From positions 1,668,212 through 1,732,211 of the forward strand of contig OX639965.1 in the NCBI GenBank assembly GCA_951828235.1: 64,000 bases of DNA. Reading direction: 5' to 3'. Below are positions 4,333 to 26,348 of the stretch, one piece after another; position 1 is the first letter of the stretch, and every line of letters starts with the position of its first letter. Position numbers and translations under genes: made by a program. This DNA is from an uncultured Gammaproteobacteria bacterium. GTDB lineage: Bacteria; Pseudomonadota; Gammaproteobacteria; Steroidobacterales; Foliamicaceae. The notes under the pieces are model-generated. The model made no database searches, was not told the DNA's origin, and worked only from the letters and a program-made list of their open reading frames with translations.

Positions 4333-5136
4333 CTAGTCCTTCAGAATAAAGTCAGCCACGATGCGGGTCCATTCCTCGGGCTGTTCGTCCACGATGTCGT
4401 GAGTGCCGCCTTGCAACTCGGCGTATTCGAAATCGGGCCTGAGCTTGTTTACTAGCTTGCAGACCTCGTAAATGTCGTCTCCGGTGTTGGTCAACACCAG
4501 CGTCGGCTGGGTCATCTTGCGCAAAGGCACGGAAAGGTCATGGGCGAAGGCGGCGGCGTGGCCGAACCTGGCTTTCTCGCCGGCGATCAGCATCTGCACC
4601 ACGCCCCAGTGCATGGCGCGCAGGTTGGTCCAGCCTGGCGTGAAGTGCAGCCGCCGGTTCCACACGTCCATGAGGTGGCTGCCGTCCGCCTTCACTTCGG
4701 GCTCGGCGCGCTTGCCGGTCGCCTCGCTCCACTTGGCCTGCTCCTCGCGGGTCAGCAGCGGCGCGCCGTTCAGCACTACCCGGGTAACCCGCTCCGGCTC
4801 CATTACCGCGAGTTCCGCGGCTATGGAAGCGCCGGTGTGGTGGCCCAGCAGCGCCGTGCGTTCCAGCTCCAGATGATCGATCACGCTGCGGATGGCTTGC
4901 GCGTAGTCCGGGATCCAGGGTTGCTCGTCGGGTACGTGGGACTGGCCGAAGCCGGGCGTATCTACGCCGATCGCGCGTATGCCGCGCTCCGCCAGCGGCT
5001 GATAGGCGGCCTCGAACATCTCCGAGGAGCTGGGCGACTGGTGAAGCAGCAGCAGCGGCGTGCCGCTGCCCGCCTCCTGGTAATGGATCTGCCCGAACGG
5101 CCCGTCGGCGTAGCCTTTGCGTCTTTTGGGGCTCAT
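4333..5136 (-). CDS. Alpha/beta-fold hydrolase.
   Basis: LLLLHQSP oxyanion region and a GHHTGA nucleophile-elbow-like motif. The ATG at 5136 (MSPKRRKGY) lies inside the terminal repeat of the tnpB element; the alternative ATG is at 5154. Confidence 0.7.
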   Translation of the reverse strand: MSPKRRKGYADGPFGQIHYQEAGSGTPLLLLHQSPSSSEMFEAAYQPLAERGIRAIGVDTPGFGQSHVPDEQPWIPDYAQAIRSVIDHLELERTALLGHHTGASIAAELAVMEPERVTRVVLNGAPLLTREEQAKWSEATGKRAEPEVKADGSHLMDVWNRRLHFTPGWTNLRAMHWGVVQMLIAGEKARFGHAAAFAHDLSVPLRKMTQPTLVLTNTGDDIYEVCKLVNKLRPDFEYAELQGGTHDIVDEQPEEWTRIVADFILKD

Positions 5137-5149
5137 ATACCTAAGTTGC
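5128..5149. repeat. Terminal inverted repeat of the tnpB element (end next to the tnpB stop codon).
   Basis: GGGGCTCATATACCTAAGTTGC. It contains the tnpB TAG stop (5141-5143) and the hydrolase ATG (5134-5136). Confidence 0.75.
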
Positions 5150-6418
5150 TGCATCAGCGGCGACCGCCGGTATATCTCGTTGACGGTTCATCGGAGGGGC
5201 CAGCGCCCACGCTCCTCGCCGTCCAGAAGCCCCAGTCCCCCGGGCCAGTATGTTCAACGCGGCATTGATATCCGCATTGCCGTAACGCCCGCAGGCGCGG
5301 CACTCGAAGCTGGCCTGCGAGCGCCGGTTGTCCTTTGCGACATGCCCGCAGTGCGAGCAGGTCTGAGAAGTGTAGGCCGGATCAACCTCGATCAGATCGG
5401 CGACCTTGTAGGCAAGCTTGTCGCGCAAGCCGCCCCAGCCGGTGTCGAGGATCCCCCGGTTCAGCCGCGCCTTGGCCCGCACCCTGCTGCCGGGGCGCCG
5501 GGCTGTGCCCTTCGCCGACTTCGTCATCGCCTCGATGTCCAGCTTCTCGACCACTACCGTTCCGGCGGTGGATACGAGATCACGGCTGGCGTGGTGCTGC
5601 CAGTTGGCGCGGATCATCGCCAGCTTCCTCGAGACCGACGCCCGTCGATGCCGGGCCAGGGCCCTTCTCTTCGAGCCCTTCCTGCGCCGGTCCATCATCC
5701 GCTGGTAGCGGTTCTCGCGGCCCTGCAGCTTCGCGACCTCGGGCGTGTGCAGGATCTCTCCGCCGCTGGTGGCGACTTGGCCGACGTTGCGGTCAAGGCC
5801 GAGGGTACGGCCATTGTCGTGCGGCGCCACGAGCTCGTCGGGAACCTCGTAGCACACCGTGCAGTACCAGCGCCCCAGCACGCGCTTGACCACGGCCTGC
5901 TTCGGCACATGGGCGTCATAGGGGTTGCCGCCCGAACGCCGCAGTACGCACCAGCCGATCTTCGGAATCCAGAGCCGGCGCACGCCGGTGATGGAGTCGA
6001 TGCGTATGGTCACGTTCTGCGGGATCGTGAACGAGTCATCGCCCCGGCGGGCCTTGAACTTCGGGAAGCCCGCCTTCGGATCGGTGAAGGTCCGCTTCCA
6101 GGCATCGGCCTGGCGCTTGAGGGCATAGCGCACCGGAGCGCAAGGGAGAGACTGTAGCCAAGGGGTCTCGGCACGAAGTTCCTTGAACCGCTTGCCGAGC
6201 GAGAAGAATGTGAGCGAGGGCTTTGCCGGGCGCTCGAAGCACATTCCAAGAAGCGTGTCCTCGCAGAAGCGCGGAGTGTCGCAATGCAGCCGGTACTGTT
6301 CCTTGGTCTCCGCCAGCACCCGGTTCCAGACCCAGCGGCCCGCGCCAGCGGTCTGAGAGACCTTCTCCGCCTTCGCGGCGCTGCCCGGGGCCAGGCGGAA
6401 TGTGATGTTGCGGTGCAT
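5141..6418 (-). CDS. tnpB: TnpB (OrfB) RNA-guided endonuclease of the IS200/IS605-IS1341 type; appears intact.
   Basis: RuvC-like residues in LGLDRNVGQ, VVVEKLDIE and NADINAALNI. Zinc ribbon CSHCGH...CRACG. 425 aa. Confidence 0.9.
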   Translation of the reverse strand: MHRNITFRLAPGSAAKAEKVSQTAGAGRWVWNRVLAETKEQYRLHCDTPRFCEDTLLGMCFERPAKPSLTFFSLGKRFKELRAETPWLQSLPCAPVRYALKRQADAWKRTFTDPKAGFPKFKARRGDDSFTIPQNVTIRIDSITGVRRLWIPKIGWCVLRRSGGNPYDAHVPKQAVVKRVLGRWYCTVCYEVPDELVAPHDNGRTLGLDRNVGQVATSGGEILHTPEVAKLQGRENRYQRMMDRRRKGSKRRALARHRRASVSRKLAMIRANWQHHASRDLVSTAGTVVVEKLDIEAMTKSAKGTARRPGSRVRAKARLNRGILDTGWGGLRDKLAYKVADLIEVDPAYTSQTCSHCGHVAKDNRRSQASFECRACGRYGNADINAALNILARGTGASGRRGAWALAPPMNRQRDIPAVAADAAT

Positions 6419-6472
6419 AAGACTATTTTATCAAGTATCACCTTGAAATGCTTGAGGAAAACATGGGATCTT

Positions 6473-6494
6473 GCAACTTAGAGGTATAAGCCCC
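6473..6494. repeat. Terminal inverted repeat of the tnpB element (end upstream of the tnpB start).
   Basis: The reverse complement GGGGCTTATACCTCTAAGTTGC matches 19 positions of the 5128-5149 repeat when two 2-nt gaps are allowed. Confidence 0.75.
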
Positions 6495-6597
6495 TTTCAT
6501 ATCGTCTCGAATCCCTCTCCCGGGCGGGCTAGTGTAGCGTAGCAAACAGCCCCCGTGTCTTATACTTGCGCCCCGCAAGCGGGCCTGGAGCAAGCCA

Positions 6598-8073
6598 GTG
6601 ACTGATGGCACCCATGAATTCGATTTGCTGATCAAGAACGTGCGCGTGGCGCGGGCCGGCGGGGACGGCCTGGAACATCTCGATATCGCGATCAAGGGCG
6701 GGCGTTTCGCAAGCCTGGCGCCGGACATCGCCGCCGGGAGCGCCAGGGAAACCTACGACGCACGCAACCGGATTGCATTTCCCGGGGTGGTGGATCCCCA
6801 CATGCACTGCGGCATCTACGGCCCGCTGGAGCAGGACGCGCAGACCGAGAGCCGGGCTGCGGCCCAGGGCGGCGTGACCTCAAGCCTCAACTACATGCGA
6901 ACCGGGCAGTACTACCTGAACAAGGGCGGTCCGTATGCCGAGTTCTTCCCCGACGTGCTGGAGAAGTCCGACGGGCGCTTCCACGTGGACTACTGCTATC
7001 ACCTGGCGCCCATGGACAGCACCCACATTTCGGAACTGCCCATGCTGGTGGGCGAGCACGGGGTGACCTCGTTCAAGATCTTCATGTTCTACGGCAGCTA
7101 CGGGCTGCACGGCGCCTCCGTGAGCCAGAACGACTTCCTGATGATCGGCGAGGACGAACGCTACGACTACGCGCACTTCGAATTCGTGATGCGCGGCGTC
7201 AAGCGCGCCATGCAGGAGCACCCGGACGCCGCCCCCGCCGTCAGCCTCAGCCTGCACTGCGAAACGGCGGAGATCATGCAGGCGTATACGAAGATCGTGC
7301 AGGATGAGGGCAGGCTCACCGGCCTGCACGCCTATCATGCCGCGCGGCCACCCCACTCGGAAGGGCTGGCGATTTGCATCGCTTCGTACCTGGCGCATGA
7401 GACCGAACTGCCCAATATCAATCTATTGCACCTGAGTTCGGCCAAGGCGGTGGACGCGGCGCTGCGCATGCAGGGTGCTTTCCCGCACATCGACTTCCGG
7501 CGCGAGGTCACCATCGGCCACCTGGTTCTGGACGTGGACACGCCCAACGGCAACCTGGCCAAGGTCAACCCGCCGATCCGCCCGCGCGAGGACGTGGAGT
7601 TCCTTTGGGAGAAGCTGCTGGAGCGCAAGCTCGACTGGGTGTGCAGCGACCATGCCTGCTGCAAGCACGAGCGCAAGGTGAGCCAGGACAATCCCGACGA
7701 CATCTGGCTGGCGAAGTCCGGCTTCGGCGGCACCGAGTACCTGCTGTCCGCGCTGGTCAGCGAGGGGCGCGGCCGCGGCATGAGCTTCAATCACATGGCG
7801 GAGGTGACCAGCCTGAACCCGGCGCGCCGCTTCGGGCTTTCACGCAAGGGCGACATCGCCGAAGGCCTGGACGCGGATCTGGCGATCGTGGATCCCGATG
7901 AGAACTGGACAGTCCGGGCCGAGGAATCGGAGTCCCAGCAGGGTTACACGCCGTTCGAAGGCGTGGAACTCGGCGCCCGGGTCAAGACCACTTTCCTGCG
8001 CGGACGCCGGATCTACGACGACGGCGCCGTTATCGGCGCCCCCACCGGCGAGTTCATTCGCCGCCCGATGTAG
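6598..8073 (+). CDS. Cyclic amidohydrolase (dihydropyrimidinase/hydantoinase-like).
   Basis: GVVDPHMHCG metal-binding HxH motif, typical about 490-aa length, GTG start. Confidence 0.8.
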   Translation: MTDGTHEFDLLIKNVRVARAGGDGLEHLDIAIKGGRFASLAPDIAAGSARETYDARNRIAFPGVVDPHMHCGIYGPLEQDAQTESRAAAQGGVTSSLNYMRTGQYYLNKGGPYAEFFPDVLEKSDGRFHVDYCYHLAPMDSTHISELPMLVGEHGVTSFKIFMFYGSYGLHGASVSQNDFLMIGEDERYDYAHFEFVMRGVKRAMQEHPDAAPAVSLSLHCETAEIMQAYTKIVQDEGRLTGLHAYHAARPPHSEGLAICIASYLAHETELPNINLLHLSSAKAVDAALRMQGAFPHIDFRREVTIGHLVLDVDTPNGNLAKVNPPIRPREDVEFLWEKLLERKLDWVCSDHACCKHERKVSQDNPDDIWLAKSGFGGTEYLLSALVSEGRGRGMSFNHMAEVTSLNPARRFGLSRKGDIAEGLDADLAIVDPDENWTVRAEESESQQGYTPFEGVELGARVKTTFLRGRRIYDDGAVIGAPTGEFIRRPM

Positions 8074-21886: not shown

Positions 21887-21894
21887 CTTATTTT
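21887..21894. repeat. Target-site duplication, left copy (CTTATTTT).
   Basis: An identical 8-mer directly abuts the outside of both inverted repeats. Confidence 0.85.
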
Positions 21895-21919
21895 GGGGAT
21901 TATATACCTAACTTGACAA
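21895..21919. repeat. Inverted repeat (rpoD-proximal end).
   Basis: GGGGATTATATACCTAACTTGACAA. Confidence 0.95.
21899..21904 (-). promoter_or_regulatory. Outward-facing consensus -10 hexamer (TATAAT) inside the IR, pointing toward rpoD.
   Basis: The minus strand reads TATAAT, ending 4 nt from the element tip. No good -35 sits at 17-bp spacing (TGCACC). Confidence 0.3.
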
Positions 21920-21933
21920 CAGGTGCACAAAGA

Positions 21934-21959
21934 GCAGCGCCCCTCGAAAGGGGCGCTGC
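21934..21959 (-). terminator. GC-rich hairpin, probable terminator of the minus-strand cargo operon.
   Basis: GCAGCGCCCCT-CGAA-AGGGGCGCTGC. On the minus strand it is followed by TCTTTGTG. Confidence 0.5.
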
Positions 21960-21990
21960 AATAGTATCCTAGAGTAAAGACCGCAACACG

Positions 21991-22134
21991 CTACATTACG
22001 AACCCAAGGAATGCGAAAATGAACGCTGCCAGGAACATGAGGAAAGCCACGACTTTACGGTCTTCATAATGCAGTCCCATAGTCAGAACCAAGAGTGCGC
22101 ACAGCCCCAGCCCAAGAGCGATATTCAACAACAT
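21991..22134 (-). CDS. 47-aa two-helix membrane peptide (hypothetical).
   Basis: Hand translation is MLLNIALGLGLCALLVLTMGLHYEDRKVVAFLMFLAAFIFAFLGFVM. It starts 2 nt after the upstream stop and is below the ORF-track size cutoff. Confidence 0.4.
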   Translation of the reverse strand: MLLNIALGLGLCALLVLTMGLHYEDRKVVAFLMFLAAFIFAFLGFVM

Positions 22135-22136
22135 TG

Positions 22137-23021
22137 TTAGTCGCGCTGGCGCCTTTCCCACTCCCTGAACTGTTCCAGGAATCGATCGAGCCGCCCCAGC
22201 GTATGATCCGCCGTATCCTCCTGGCTCAATGCATCTGCTTCTTCGCGGGCCAACGCGACCAGCACATCGATAATCTGCTGCCTCTCAGCGTCACTTAATG
22301 CATTCCATTCTTCTTCGGTCAGGCTGTCCAGATCGGCCAGTATCTCGACAACGGTTCTTGAGCTACTCCCAGAGGATGATCCGCCGGGCGCTTCTGTTCG
22401 GTTGCTAGGCCCGGTCGTTCGTGGATTTTTGCTCAAGCAATCCAAATACGCACCAGCGGCTGTGCCTGTAACTGCGCCTTGCAAGATTGCACTGCAAGGA
22501 TCGCGTAGCGCGTAAATTACATCGTTTTCGTTGATGTAAACATATATGTCCAAGGGATCCCTTCGGGTCGTCGCCTGGATTCCCCAATACGTTCCAATGG
22601 CGGTTGCCGCGGCGTGTATGGCGCCAACAGATTCCCTCAAGAACCATCCTGCCAAAGCTATAGATACTGTGTTTTCCGCAGTGGACATTGTGTAGGAAAG
22701 AGTCACCATTCTTCGCATGTCGTCAGTGACCATGTAACAACGTCCATCGGCAACGTAGTAGTCATATTCTTCCCGAACGATGAGTTCCCATTCATCTTCG
22801 TAATGTTCACGCCCGCGCCATGAAGACCCGTCTCTTGCATCGGCCCAACATTCACTCGGGGTGTCGTAGCCGTAAACATTTGTGGTGGCCCGCGCTGAAA
22901 ATACGCCCACAAGGAAATACAGTGCCATGACCAGCAATAGAAATATGCCGATACGTTCCCCTGTTTTTGACAGCGCCCATTGATGATAAGTCCGCCAAGC
23001 ATTACGAATCTTGTTTGTCAT
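22137..23021 (-). CDS. Hypothetical 294-aa protein with an N-terminal membrane anchor and an acidic coiled-coil C-terminus.
   Basis: ATG at 23021 (MTNKIRN) is preceded by AAGGAG. The longer track ORF (to 23255) runs through the tRNA gene and is rejected. I recognise no domain. Confidence 0.6.
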   Translation of the reverse strand: MTNKIRNAWRTYHQWALSKTGERIGIFLLLVMALYFLVGVFSARATTNVYGYDTPSECWADARDGSSWRGREHYEDEWELIVREEYDYYVADGRCYMVTDDMRRMVTLSYTMSTAENTVSIALAGWFLRESVGAIHAAATAIGTYWGIQATTRRDPLDIYVYINENDVIYALRDPCSAILQGAVTGTAAGAYLDCLSKNPRTTGPSNRTEAPGGSSSGSSSRTVVEILADLDSLTEEEWNALSDAERQQIIDVLVALAREEADALSQEDTADHTLGRLDRFLEQFREWERRQRD

Positions 23022-23162
23022 TTCCAAATTCTCCTTACAATGAGGAATGTGCCCCGCTGGTGAATCATGCTCTCCGTGCGCAATTTGATAGTAGCACAGT
23101 TCAATTGACAAGATAACGCGCGTTATCAGGTATACTTGATATCGCCAATGCCCAAAAGGAGA

Positions 23163-23261
23163 CGGAGGCGGCGGGATTCGAACCCACGGTAGGTATTTTG
23201 CTTTACGGGCACCTACACCGGTTTTTAAGACCGGCGCATTAAGCCACTCTGCCACGCCTCC
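23163..23261 (-). tRNA. 99-nt class II tRNA with anticodon UAA (Leu by anticodon) but Ser-like architecture, G73 discriminator and an about 30-nt variable region.
   Basis: Hand-folded cloverleaf: GGAGGCG / TG / GCA-GAGTGGCTTAA-TGC / G / CCGGT-CTTAAAA-ACCGG / TGTAGGTGCCCGTAAAGCAAAATACCTACC / GTGGG-TTCGAAT-CCCGC / CGCCTCC / G. No encoded CCA. Confidence 0.75.
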
Positions 23262-23289
23262 GCAGAGCGGTTGCGGAGCATAGCATCTT

Positions 23290-23323
23290 GGGGCGAGAGG
23301 GTTGATCCTTCTCGCCCCTTTTT
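23290..23323 (+). terminator. Intrinsic-terminator-like hairpin plus T-run, with no obvious upstream plus-strand gene.
   Basis: GGGGCGAGA-(11 nt)-TCTCGCCCC-TTTTT. Confidence 0.45.
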
Positions 23324-23665
23324 ACTATGTGATATATTTTCCCACGAGAAATTCGCTGGTATCCCCTATGTCGGGTTGCCCGCTGAATACAACAGCCGTT
23401 TGCAGCCTGGAGTAGCTATCCGGACTTGGTAAACAAGCGGGATTTTCGCTACCAGTGAATTTCTCAAAGGCCCGGCGCTTTGCCAGGCCAAAACAAGCGA
23501 GCCTCCAACGAGGATAAGTCGTCGGAGGCTCTTACCGCGCAGAGAGTTGAATACCACACAGCGCGGCAGCGGCATTGTAGCCTCTGCAACGAGCAGGCTT
23601 TCTCTCTGCGCCTCAGCCGACCCCGCTTTCCAAGGCGGGGTCGGTTCCAATAAGAGGAAGAGAGC

Positions 23666-24169
23666 ATGTTTGAGAAGAAAGCAGATCCTGGCGGGGCTAT
23701 TTTCGTCGGGATACTTCTAATCGTTGTCGTTCCACTTCTGACAGGGATGTGTTCTGTTGCTTATCCACAAGAAAGCAACAGAATCCTGACTAAAGAGCAG
23801 TCACCCGCCGTGCAAGCAATTAACACGGCGCTAGAGAACGTGGACGCCGCAATTGTGGAAGCAACGGTAACGCGAGACTATTTTGTTGCGCAACTTGCCG
23901 CACCTACATTCAACACAGCGAAGATAGAAGAGAAAAGCCACGCGCATATGGCAAAAATTACGGCAGCGGACGAAAAATGGCGTATTGCTTCCGAGTTGCT
24001 TCAAGAGACGGCAGAAAACGCGCCTCATGCCTTCAAGAGTATTGAACAATTATGGGCGACACGTGATCGCCTGCAAGCCGCGCGCGACCGTATTACGGCA
24101 TTGGGAGAAGATGCGCTAAAAGCACTGGACCGAAGCGCGTCCCGTTTACAGAGACAGTTGGAACGATGA
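23666..24169 (+). CDS. Hypothetical membrane-anchored coiled-coil protein (167 aa).
   Basis: N-terminal TM segment (AIFVGILLIVVVPLLTG). ATGA overlap with the downstream nuclease gene. AGAGGAAGAGAG RBS region. Confidence 0.55.
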   Translation: MFEKKADPGGAIFVGILLIVVVPLLTGMCSVAYPQESNRILTKEQSPAVQAINTALENVDAAIVEATVTRDYFVAQLAAPTFNTAKIEEKSHAHMAKITAADEKWRIASELLQETAENAPHAFKSIEQLWATRDRLQAARDRITALGEDALKALDRSASRLQRQLER

Positions 24170-24810
24170 AGAAAACCACTCCTGTTCTCTTCGCATTACT
24201 GGCCTACGCCTGTCTTGCCACGGGCGAAGATGCACACGCCCAGCTCGCAACAGCAGCCACCGTAACCGGCGCCTATGATGGAGACACGATTTACGTTACC
24301 GCGGCTGTTTGGCCCAACATGCTTTGGGCTGGCAGTGTTCGCGTTCTCGGCGTAGACACACCGGAGATTCAGGGGCGCTGCGTACAGGAAAGCACGCTGG
24401 CGCTTGAGGCACGGGATTACGTTCGGGATCTGTTGACTGACGAGAGTGTTCTTTTGACGGATGTGAAGAACGACAAATATGGCGGGCGTGTCCTGGCGCA
24501 TGTCTTTTTACAAGCGGAAGACAACCAGCAGAATCTTGCTGCTCTACTTATCGAGCGAGGCTTGGGGCGTGATTATGATGGCGGCACTCGGCAAAGCTGG
24601 TGTGGAGATGAGCAGGAATTGCCCGAACAGGCGGCACCAGTTGATGCCGATGTGAACCTGGACGATCCTCTTGCACTATATGACGATAACAATAACGGCA
24701 GGATTACTTGTGCTGAAGCAAGAAAGCACGGGATTGCGCCCGTGAAAAGCGACCATCCTGCTTACCGCTATATGAACGATAGAGACAGGGATGGGGTGGT
24801 TTGCGAGTAA
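24166..24810 (+). CDS. Secreted thermonuclease (SNase-like) with a C-terminal Excalibur calcium-binding domain.
   Basis: Signal peptide, DGDTIYV, LGVDTPE, KYGGRVLAHVF, and a C-terminal DDNNNGRITCAEA...DRDRDGVVCE. Confidence 0.8.
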   Translation: MKKTTPVLFALLAYACLATGEDAHAQLATAATVTGAYDGDTIYVTAAVWPNMLWAGSVRVLGVDTPEIQGRCVQESTLALEARDYVRDLLTDESVLLTDVKNDKYGGRVLAHVFLQAEDNQQNLAALLIERGLGRDYDGGTRQSWCGDEQELPEQAAPVDADVNLDDPLALYDDNNNGRITCAEARKHGIAPVKSDHPAYRYMNDRDRDGVVCE

Positions 24811-24860
24811 TTATCAAGATAACCAAGATAATCTTGTGATACACTCCTTTCCAAGGAGAG

Positions 24861-24933
24861 TGGCCCCGGAGAGAATCGAACTCTCACCTTCCCGTTCGGC
24901 AAACAGGGGCTCTATCCGTTGAGCTACGGGGCC
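24861..24933 (-). tRNA. tRNA-Gly (anticodon GCC), 73 nt, no encoded CCA.
   Basis: Hand fold: GGCCCCG / TA / GCTC-AACGGATA-GAGC / C / CCTGT-TTGCCGA-ACGGG / AAGGT / GAGAG-TTCGATT-CTCTC / CGGGGCC / A. Confidence 0.85.
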
Positions 24934-25085
24934 ACTTCTTCATTCTACTGTTAATGAATGCACGTAACTACGTGCGGCGCTTAATTCGTTGCGCATGAAA
25001 TTTGCGCAAAGAATTACAACAGAATATGTTGTATCATATATTCAACAGTTTTAACTGTAATCATCATCAATATCTGGAGATAACT

Positions 25086-25337
25086 ATGAGCACCAAATCC
25101 AAGCTCAATGGCAGCGTTGATTTGTTGGCTAAAGCAATGCGTCAGGTGTTCACAGAGGCCGTAGAAGAAGGTCTTGTTCCAGTGCGAGAGGACATCAAGG
25201 ACATTCGTGGCGACATCAAGAAACTGAGCGACGGTCTGGACACGACAAACCAGAACATGCAGGCGCAATTCGCGCAACATCGCAAGGACGTGTCGGCAGA
25301 TGTGCGCCAAGCTTTACGGCGTCAGCCTAGCCGTTAG
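25086..25337 (+). CDS. Hypothetical 83-aa helical protein.
   Basis: ATG at 25086 (MSTKSKLNGSVDLL...) with GGAG 6 nt upstream of the ATG. Convergent 4-nt overlap with the transposase stop. Confidence 0.4.
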   Translation: MSTKSKLNGSVDLLAKAMRQVFTEAVEEGLVPVREDIKDIRGDIKKLSDGLDTTNQNMQAQFAQHRKDVSADVRQALRRQPSR

Positions 25338-26287
25338 GCGATCAAGTCCCGGTACATCAGCCGCTTTCCAACTAGGCCAGCGATTACGTTCCGCATCATC
25401 GCGGCGGTATCGCACTCGCGGAGATTGTGACGGCCTGCGAACTCTGTGACGTAACGTTGCAGGTGCTTCCGACTCATCTTGTGGAACGTGCCGGTGTGAG
25501 CACGTTTGAGCATTGACCAAAAGGACTCTACGCCGTTGGTGTGAATCTGCCCATCAACGTATTGTCCGGCGCCATGCTTGACAGCACTATGATTCGCCAG
25601 TCCTCTATAGGCACGCGCTTCGTCGGTAAAGATTGGAGCGCCAGGAGCCGCTGATGCACTTACGAAGCCGTGCAATGTGGGTTTGTCTGTCTTCTCCACT
25701 ACACGAGCCTGAACACGATTACTCTGACGATCCTTTGCGCCGACTACGGCTGTCTTGCCCACGGTGCCGCGACCTGCTTTCAGGCGGTCCTTGACATGTT
25801 TGTTCTTCTCTTTGCCACCCACATAGGTTTCGTCTACTTCCACCGGACCGATAAACTTTTCAATGCCTGATGTGTCCCAAGCCTCGCGTAATCTGTGGAG
25901 CAGGAACCACGCCGTCTTTTGCGTCACTTTCAGATCCCGATGCAGCTTCATGCTGGACACGCCCTTCAAGCTGGTTACATAGAGATAGGTTGCGACCGCC
26001 CACTTGCGCAGTGGCAGGCGGGAACTCTGCAAGGTTGTGCCGGTGCGGACGCTGAAATACTGGCGGCAGTCCGTGCACCAATAGGGCATCGGCTTGCGGT
26101 TCGGGACTTCCTTTGTCGCAGTGCTTCCACAGTGACCGCAGCATCGACCCTCCGGCCATTGTACGGATTCGAACCACTGGACAGCCGTATCTTCGTCGGG
26201 AAACATCTCCATTAGCCTGATGAGCGAGATGCCTTTACGATCTGATTTTCCGGGAGATTTGTGCTTGGACATAATGTATTCCTCCAT
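25334..26287 (-). CDS. IS1595-family DDE transposase (ISXO2-like domain) with an N-terminal zinc ribbon.
   Basis: CCGHCGS...YWCTDCRQYFSVRTGT, VEVDETYVGG, FTDEARAY, HTNGVESFWSMLKR. Alternative start at 26272 (MSKHK). Confidence 0.9.
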   Translation of the reverse strand: MEEYIMSKHKSPGKSDRKGISLIRLMEMFPDEDTAVQWFESVQWPEGRCCGHCGSTATKEVPNRKPMPYWCTDCRQYFSVRTGTTLQSSRLPLRKWAVATYLYVTSLKGVSSMKLHRDLKVTQKTAWFLLHRLREAWDTSGIEKFIGPVEVDETYVGGKEKNKHVKDRLKAGRGTVGKTAVVGAKDRQSNRVQARVVEKTDKPTLHGFVSASAAPGAPIFTDEARAYRGLANHSAVKHGAGQYVDGQIHTNGVESFWSMLKRAHTGTFHKMSRKHLQRYVTEFAGRHNLRECDTAAMMRNVIAGLVGKRLMYRDLIA

Positions 26288-26315
26288 ACGCGTATTTTCT
26301 CAGATTATGCTGGCT

Positions 26316-26340
26316 TTGTCAAGTTAGGTATATAATCCCC
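26316..26340. repeat. Inverted repeat (transposase-proximal end).
   Basis: TTGTCAAGTTAGGTATATAATCCCC is the exact reverse complement of 21895-21919. Confidence 0.95.
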
Positions 26341-26348
26341 CTTATTTT
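26341..26348. repeat. Target-site duplication, right copy (CTTATTTT).
   Basis: Identical to 21887-21894. Confidence 0.85.

Follow-up and report, generated by a model that had tools for sequence, protein, structure and literature searches.

A tnpB gene and its predicted guide RNA packaged between IS1595-type terminal inverted repeats: probable carriage by a DDE transposon lineage and a candidate one-base target motif

We analysed a 64,000-bp stretch of an uncultured gammaproteobacterial genome of the family Foliamicaceae (contig OX639965.1, positions 1,668,212 to 1,732,211; hereafter the window), in which a gene for the nuclease TnpB lies between two inverted repeats. The element spans positions 5128–6494 on the minus strand (1367 bp), with its left end at 6494 and its right end at 5128 in tnpB orientation. 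The only open reading frame (ORF) with a family match inside these limits is the intact tnpB gene (5141–6418, minus strand, 425 aa), and no DDE_Tnp_IS1595 gene is encoded. The left terminal inverted repeat (6473–6494) reads GGGGCTTATACCTCTAAGTTGC on the minus strand and the right one (5128–5149) reads GGGGCTCATATACCTAAGTTGC on the plus strand; the two 22-bp arms lie where the original prediction had placed them, are spaced 1323 nt apart and are identical at 18 of 22 positions. The right repeat overlaps the tnpB stop codon (5141–5143) and forms the 3′ end of the predicted guide-RNA scaffold, while an AT-rich non-coding leader (6419–6472, minus strand) connects the left repeat to the tnpB start codon. 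This leader is conserved in the closest relative, L002, which lies on another contig of the same metagenome, encodes a TnpB 86% identical to that of the window, occupies a different locus and has both repeat variants alike, including the left-repeat variant GGGGCTTATATCTCTAAGTTGC.

Cas12 descends from TnpB, which also serves as a compact tool for genome editing; the systems in which TnpB biology was elucidated are Y1 and serine transposons, which excise without a scar. The 425-aa protein of the window matches the Pfam families HTH_OrfB_IS605, OrfB_IS605 and Cas12f1-like_TNB and passes the NCBIfam model guided_TnpB (218 bits against a cut-off of 100), while scoring below the cut-offs of IS200_TnpB (NF038281, 145 against 425 bits) and IS607_TnpB (NF038280, 89 against 350 bits). 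Its RuvC residues D209, E291 and D383 are invariant in an alignment of 30 sequences, and a CxxC...CxxC zinc finger is present. The protein also matches the structures of ISDra2 TnpB (8bf8/8exa) over residues 6–399 (E = 1.4e-18).

About 20 kb from the element lies a complete IS1595-family transposon of 4446 bp (21895–26340), bounded by perfect 22-bp repeats, GGGGATTATATACCTAACTTGA, at 21895–21916 and 26319–26340 and by the 8-bp duplication CTTATTTT (21887–21894 and 26341–26348). Its transposase gene (25334–26287, minus strand, 317 aa) is of the ISXO2-like DDE type, matching DDE_Tnp_IS1595 (E = 4e-41) and transpos_IS1595 (195 bits against a cut-off of 75). Both arms of the tnpB element match the repeat of this transposon at 18 of 22 positions, which bears out the resemblance to an IS1595-type repeat on which the original prediction was built. 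A pattern search of the 64 kb allowing up to three mismatches finds four sites where shuffled sequences are expected to give none, two being the ends of the tnpB element and two the ends of the IS1595 transposon; the repeat is therefore not a common genomic motif. Mobilisation of the tnpB element in trans by the transposase 20 kb away, with that enzyme as candidate partner, is no more than plausible, in view of the short duplication and unequal repeats of the window copy and of the apparent recent arrival of the neighbouring transposon.

The limits of the element are fixed by an empty orthologous site in a strain without tnpB (L163), whose neighbouring alpha/beta hydrolase is 92% identical to that of the window. 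The empty site reads GAGACGACATGAAAAGACGCAAAGG, and the window at that site reads GAGACGATATGAAA, the element, then AAAAGACGCAAAGG, that is ...ATGAAA, the element, then AAAAGACGC.... This comparison places the inserted DNA at exactly 5128–6494, with no mobile DNA outside the repeats. No IS605-type ends thus lie outside the repeats, the unoccupied sequence being continuous at the repeat tips; with the repeat no common genomic motif either, neither finding that would have refuted the original prediction was made.

This arrangement recurs in relatives. A protein search returned 1187 TnpB homologs, and a scan of one genome per species yielded 80 loci at 45–70% identity, mostly from sponge-associated Gammaproteobacteria, Alphaproteobacteria and Rhodothermales. 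Aligning the upstream region of each gene to its reverse-complemented downstream region revealed that nearly all of the ~80 relatives (45–86% identity, at least 15 genomes) carry GGG(G)NTTATATAC repeats just outside tnpB, the left end lying 45–340 bp upstream of the start codon and the right end 5–37 bp past the stop codon. When element ends are called from the repeats alone, tnpB-only elements are flanked by target duplications that are perfect (8/8) in 28 cases and match at 7/8 in five more. These duplication-bounded elements measure 1.3–1.6 kb and have tnpB as their sole content.

To the relatives' repeats and duplications the Rhodothermales loci add a direct link to the transposase. When the tnpB loci were searched with the window transposase, ten from Rhodothermales proved to have an IS1595 transposase gene, 55% identical to that of the window, upstream of tnpB and at a constant spacing from it. 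Seven of the ten were aligned, and ends were mapped in nine composites of the Rhodothermales metagenome-assembled genome (MAG) OY760427, where the copies turn identical from GGGAGTTATATAGCTG onward. The composite runs from a left repeat through the transposase gene, an internal right-type repeat, ~470 bp, internal left-type repeats and tnpB to the right repeat. It is ~3.7 kb long and is present in at least nine copies in OY760427, whose outer repeats are flanked by perfect 8-bp duplications that differ from copy to copy. Variants of 2.1 and 3.4 kb also occur in this genome, beside numerous tnpB-only derivatives of 1.46 kb, again with perfect duplications, so that tnpB and a DDE transposase inside one repeat pair, and solo copies with matching ends, are both present in Rhodothermales. 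Because the composite duplications surround the outer repeats, including the right repeat of tnpB, that repeat is presumably a substrate of the transposase, and an IS1595-family enzyme appears to use it as one of its two ends.

OY760427 is notable for the number of its copies as well, with more than 40 tnpB copies in a 5.9-Mb genome and coexisting element lengths of 1278, 1457, 2149, 3384 and 3701 bp. Its left ends carry two copies of the left-type repeat, which precede the start codon by ~222 and ~43 bp, and several loci have two or three tnpB copies side by side. In one Rhodothermales composite (L183:6584-8118) an unrelated insertion sequence (IS; DDE_Tnp_1 / DDE_Tnp_1_4) sits between the transposase gene and tnpB.

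Elements without tnpB share these ends. A metagenome scan with the window transposase gave 80 loci, none of which encodes TnpB; 29 have the matching repeat type, GGGnnTTATATAC, and perfect 8-bp duplications. The repeat of one of them (L142) is identical over 18 nt to that of a tnpB-only element (L004), the repeat of the window transposon differs from the left repeat of another tnpB-only element (L005) at 1 of 23 positions, and the genome holding a third (L028) also contains an autonomous IS1595 element. The repeat type is probably that of the ISNwi1 group of ISfinder and TnPedia (ends ggnnatTAT, 8-bp direct repeats). The clean-ended tnpB-less elements (L085-L152, L182) are 1.5–4.0 kb long although the transposase needs only ~1 kb, passenger DNA being the rule; the cargo of L182 is an N6/N4 methyltransferase-HNH protein.

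Taken together, the inverted-repeat ends, the 8-bp duplications and the travel of transposase and tnpB as one unit show, as far as comparative genomics can, that this lineage is moved by IS1595-type DDE transposition and not by Y1 or serine TnpA. The claim of the original prediction, that an intact TnpB is packaged here as a non-autonomous IS1595-type element without a DDE gene, is thereby strongly supported by the relatives' repeats, by their duplications (those of the tnpB-only elements, 28 perfect and five at 7/8, and of at least nine composites) and by the Rhodothermales composite. The outgroups look different. In three examined among the best plasmid matches (L167, L168 and L169; 33–36% identity) the repeats are absent in all three; a Y1 tnpA directly adjoins the plasmid-borne L167 (36%), one lies ~1 kb downstream of L169 (33%), and none is annotated in the L168 stretch. 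Because these outgroups lack the repeats and two of the three have a Y1 tnpA nearby, the lineage looks like the product of a carrier switch, in which an IS1595-type transposon took the place of an IS605-type one.

The 3′ end of the element also appears to encode the guide (omega) RNA. Across 24 diverse elements, the final ~135 nt show strong nucleotide conservation that exceeds coding constraint, and the predicted scaffold in the window (5128–5262, minus strand) overlaps the 3′ end of tnpB and stops at the element tip. Four covarying helices have 93.9% of their alignment cells paired. Both partners have changed in 60 cells, where shuffles give 14.3, and slid controls reach at most 53%. In helix 5 of this covarying structure, GGUAUAU within the right repeat is the partner of an upstream AUAU(ACC). 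The covariance model derived from the alignment scores 97–125 bits on eight relatives outside the training set, every match stopping at the right tip, and finds a single copy in the window (5128–5262, 122.6 bits). Since the single-sequence fold of the scaffold is no better than that of shuffles (z = −0.72), the structure rests on covariation. Rfam returns only tRNAs at gathering thresholds in the window, and nothing at E ≤ 1 across 5000–6600. As a possibility only, the loop GGGACU may form a pseudoknot with the terminal AGYCCC, a pairing seen at 85% with almost no compensatory change.

Because a covarying helix pairs into it, the right repeat is shown by this comparison to double, in the predicted structure, as a transposase site and as the ~22 nt with which the omega RNA scaffold ends. 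Judging from the TnpB mechanism and the end of the scaffold, read-through of the right end would give the predicted guide AAAAGACGCAAAGGCUACGC (5108–5127, minus strand), which corresponds to the start of the adjacent hydrolase ORF.

We then compared the target sites. Forty-two independent insertions with duplications of 7–8/8 were oriented by tnpB, and the 29 tnpB-less elements, oriented by their transposase gene, served as controls. The duplication consensus is WWWNNWWW. Immediately 5′ of the left duplication copy stands a G in 40 of the 42 insertions, whereas the mirrored C after the right copy is found in 12; among the controls the figures are 6/29 for G and 7/29 for C (Fisher p = 4e-11). 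The same G precedes five further Rhodothermales copies and is found in the left flanks of both L002 and the window element. In the window, on the minus strand, 6495–6503 reads G followed by ATATGAAA, a presumptive original 8-bp target of the WWWNNWWW type after the conserved G at 6503, the candidate target-adjacent motif (TAM). Unequal repeats do not account for the bias, because the left and right repeats of L004 and L013 are identical (18/18).

Two other readings of the target sites were considered and rejected. The G is not the outer base of a 9-bp duplication, since in every case the right copy directly follows the terminal C of the repeat. ISDra2 TnpB cuts ~15–21 nt from its TAM; because the G abuts the duplication, the latter was not made by a staggered cut of TnpB itself. 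Further sites were sought through exact-protein look-ups, which gave no clean one: two identical-protein groups (P0028 and P0048) each represent one locus, and the left ends of L170 and L180 are decayed.

We take the G to be a putative minimal TAM of one base, because a G at the empty site against a C at the occupied site offers the contrast needed for self/non-self discrimination. Transcription reading through the right repeat would produce a guide composed of the 8-bp duplication plus the downstream flank. At an empty site the target would be preceded by G (95% of insertions), and at an occupied site by the terminal C of the repeat, so that the element would spare its own flank. Cleavage by TnpB would fall on sites that are empty or from which the element was precisely excised, and would thereby force repair from the occupied copy, and surviving insertions would become enriched for G.

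We consider it probable that 5128–6494 is a non-autonomous member of an IS1595-family lineage, recognisable by GGG(G)NTTATATAC repeats and 8-bp AT-rich duplications, whose cargo is TnpB with its omega RNA and the G as presumed TAM. The more specific proposal, that a bacterial RNA-guided nuclease shapes the survival of DDE insertions, with a guide that starts with the duplication, a single-G TAM, a protective terminal C and persistence of G-adjacent insertions only, is put forward tentatively, at somewhat less than even confidence.

Several observations weigh against these readings. The flanks of the window element, CGTCTTTT and TTTCATAT, contain no 8-bp duplication. The original prediction had reported no target duplication at all, which holds for 8 bp; the empty site in L163 reveals a duplication of 3 bp, TTT on the plus strand at 5125–5127 with its left-hand copy at 6495–6497, where 8 bp is expected for the IS1595 family. 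With only these 3 bp and with repeats that differ at 4 of 22 positions, the mobility of the window copy itself is uncertain. Even its closest relative, L002, has a duplication matching at only 6/8. Two further relatives (L170 and L180, 62–79% identity) have decayed left repeats, and the first of them occupies the same locus in many samples, so that part of this sub-lineage may be immobile or domesticated. Concerning the G, a single genome contributes about half of the 42 sites, although it still holds in the ~20 sites of other genomes, and a TAM of one base would be unusually short for TnpB. Finally, filtering of insertions by TnpB, through re-conversion of empty sites, and a G preference of the partner transposases, perhaps co-evolved to match, stand side by side as possible causes. 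None of the loci examined is a tnpB-less copy made by the Rhodothermales transposase, a look-up having given one interrupted copy, and because no such copies from the same transposase were recovered, the two causes are not separable.

The left flank does fit the family target pattern, G then ATATGAAA, and an original 8-bp duplication may thus have been trimmed later; our conjecture is that ATATG beside the right repeat was lost, leaving 3 bp.

The alternative that survives best, and one that is compatible with IS1595-type carriage of the lineage, is that the window copy is a fixed, immobile remnant, maybe co-opted by the host to provide a start codon and possibly expression signals for the hydrolase. 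We regard this as a serious possibility that falls a little short of even odds. The short duplication and the 18/22 repeats agree with it, as do a GC content equal to that of the host and the presence of a single copy within 64 kb by both repeat and covariance-model searches. Fixed copies may also exist elsewhere in the family: P0028 (L170-L175) is an identical protein at one chromosomal locus across many independent samples, with degenerate repeats in L170, and P0048 (L176-L179; 56% identity) is likewise an identical protein at one fixed locus in many samples; both could be fixed or domesticated copies.

Co-option is suggested by the hydrolase gene (4333–5139, minus strand). Its orthologs begin MKRRKGYADGPFGQIHY, and the insertion has separated the native start, ATG AAA AGA CGC (MKRRKGY...), from the ORF. 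An in-frame ATG within the right repeat (ATGAGCCCC, 5131–5139) now heads the ORF, changing the N terminus to MSPKRRKGY.... The new ATG lies 4 nt past the tnpB stop codon, a spacing that suggests coupled expression of tnpB and the hydrolase. A strict scan of 5000–6700 for sigma-70 promoters and terminators gave zero sites. Against a remnant, the gene, its catalytic residues and the RNA scaffold are all intact. The insertion is not ancient, because the empty site is found in strains with a 92%-identical hydrolase, and L002, at another locus, has the same left-right differences between its repeats, which makes them lineage features and not random decay.

It is unlikely, in our judgement, that tnpB is an inert passenger of an IS1595 transposon and that the G reflects a target preference of the transposase unrelated to RNA-guided cleavage. 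IS1595 elements of this group do regularly bear 1–2 kb of unrelated cargo, the transposases acting on most tnpB-only copies may have preferences of their own, and two of the four tnpB-less elements whose transposase is nearest to the Rhodothermales enzyme have the G. Yet the G is one-sided relative to tnpB even where the repeats are identical, as in L004 and L013, and it is seen in ~20 genomes, which presumably have different transposases, whereas the 29 diverse tnpB-less elements show no such bias. In addition, constraint is evident on the nuclease residues as well as on the RNA structure, and the terminal C of the repeat against the G of the empty site gives an exact self/non-self contrast.

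A nested accident, in which a canonical tnpB element lies inside an IS1595-derived miniature inverted-repeat transposable element and repeats and nuclease are functionally unconnected, is very improbable. IS1595-type repeats are indeed widespread on tnpB-less elements, and in the window copy the repeats are imperfect and a duplication of 8 bp is missing. Such nesting would need inner ends, for which there is no space, the tnpB stop codon lying inside the right repeat; moreover, the omega RNA scaffold pairs into the repeat with covariation, the arrangement is kept over deep divergence and in many phyla, and the G at −1 tracks tnpB orientation. That the element is an ordinary IS200/IS605 (IS1341-type) tnpB-only element, moved by Y1 TnpA in trans and with IS1595-like ends by coincidence, has a probability close to negligible despite the standard TnpB domains of the protein and the Y1 tnpA genes beside L167 and downstream of L169, given that terminal inverted repeats and target duplications are both foreign to IS200/IS605 elements, that the repeats are conserved across 45–100% identity with perfect 8-bp duplications in 28 tnpB-only and 9 composite copies, that the duplication-bounded elements hold tnpB alone and the empty site shows nothing outside the repeats, and that the IS200_TnpB score is under its cut-off.

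DDE-linked TnpB lineages have been described before. In its main text, Altae-Tran et al. 2023 (PNAS; PMC10691335) reports six DDE-transposase-associated TnpB branches (DDE-1 to DDE-6), all with inverted terminal repeats, and solo TnpBs with near-identical ends, for which mobilisation in trans was inferred; that text names only IS630, for DDE-6. A 2026 review (PMC13565253) lists ISL2, IS630 and IS1031, calls prokaryotic DDE-TnpB associations rare and asks how such systems handle target duplications. These associations have received little study. The suggestion in the original prediction that a link of any DDE IS family to an RNA-guided nuclease had yet to be described was nevertheless too broad; what stands is its narrower form, since in the literature searched no paper links TnpB to IS1595, and neither the main text of PMC10691335 nor PMC13565253 names this family.

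Judged by that main text, the lineage resembles the DDE-1 to DDE-6 branches in having tnpB within symmetrical inverted repeats beside a DDE transposase, the 3′ end of tnpB near the element end, and solo copies. It differs from the branch for which that text names a family in its partner, an IS1595-family transposase with 8-bp duplications. The main-text parts of PMC10691335 examined mention neither a one-sided G nor a repeat that serves as scaffold. The kind of system is thus already known; what seems new is the IS1595 family, the double use of the repeat and the presence of the G on one side only.

Fanzors offer a eukaryotic parallel, as Fanzor1 and Fanzor2* reside in cut-and-paste transposons that show both terminal inverted repeats and target duplications (Bao & Jurka 2013, PMC3627910; Yoon et al. 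2023, PMC10711439). Both cases place a TnpB-family nuclease on DDE-type transposons, with a guide RNA that runs, here by prediction, through the terminal repeat into the flank. In the Fanzor model (PMC10711439) the duplication is predicted to be absorbed into the RNA scaffold, and the guide begins after it. Here the hosts are bacteria, the duplication is variable and 8 bp long, and the sole base that distinguishes empty from occupied sites lies 5′ of the duplication. This last point argues for a guide that begins with the duplication; under a Fanzor-type model the occupied site would also be cut.

Compared with ISDra2 and other IS200/IS605 TnpBs (8bf8/8exa/8h1j), the protein has the same architecture over residues 6–399 and the same RuvC D-E-D residues. 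The predicted omega RNA likewise extends over the 3′ end of the gene to the element tip, with the flank as guide and, presumably, retention by homing. Unlike those elements, this one has no Y1 TnpA and no subterminal hairpin ends but inverted repeats and 8-bp duplications. Nor does a TAM of 4–5 nt abut the left end; the eight abutting nucleotides vary (WWWNNWWW), and a single conserved G stands 9 nt upstream. With IS1595 elements that carry passenger genes the lineage shares the GGGnnTTATATAC repeats, the WWWNNWWW duplications of 8 bp and the cargo habit, all three of which are present in the 29 tnpB-less elements and in the transposon of the window. The window element differs from them in being without a transposase gene, in carrying a nuclease whose RNA shares the repeat sequence, and in the extra one-sided G.

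If our proposal is true, it would be the first worked-out answer to how OMEGA systems deal with target-site duplications in prokaryotes, and would provide a natural TnpB with a one-base TAM. Should the TAM truly be one base, these nucleases of 400–430 aa would have an unusually wide targeting range. The lineage itself amounts to dozens of natural insertions with clean duplications, including an autonomous, transposase-bearing version. It is abundant in sponge-symbiont genomes, as the copy number of OY760427 illustrates, and is thus relevant to genome plasticity there.

Unmatched flanks occur at copies in multi-copy genomes. In the Porisulfidus MAG OZ243950, the left flank of one copy (L008), ATAGAATC, corresponds in reverse complement to the flank with the duplication at another (L006; ATTCTAT...). 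At least this pair thus looks to have exchanged flanks, which suggests an inversion by recombination between the two copies and would account for some elements without matching duplications. Directly past the right end of L002 (L002:4300-4450) are two sequences like the 3′ halves of tRNAs (…GGTTCAAGTCCCAGGGCCCGCACCA and …GGTTCGACTCCGGGGCCGCGCACCA), and HNH, zeta-toxin and release-factor-like genes lie in its vicinity; these surroundings may be a phage or island region.

The IS1595 transposon of the window has a GC content of ~52% against ~65% in its host surroundings, from which it looks like a recent arrival. Rfam gives a tRNA-like match of 99 nt at 23163–23261 (59.5 bits), where ARAGORN makes no call. 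The cargo includes a tRNA-Gly(GCC) at 24860–24933, a secreted-looking nuclease with SNase and Excalibur domains (24166–24810) and three ORFs without a family match.

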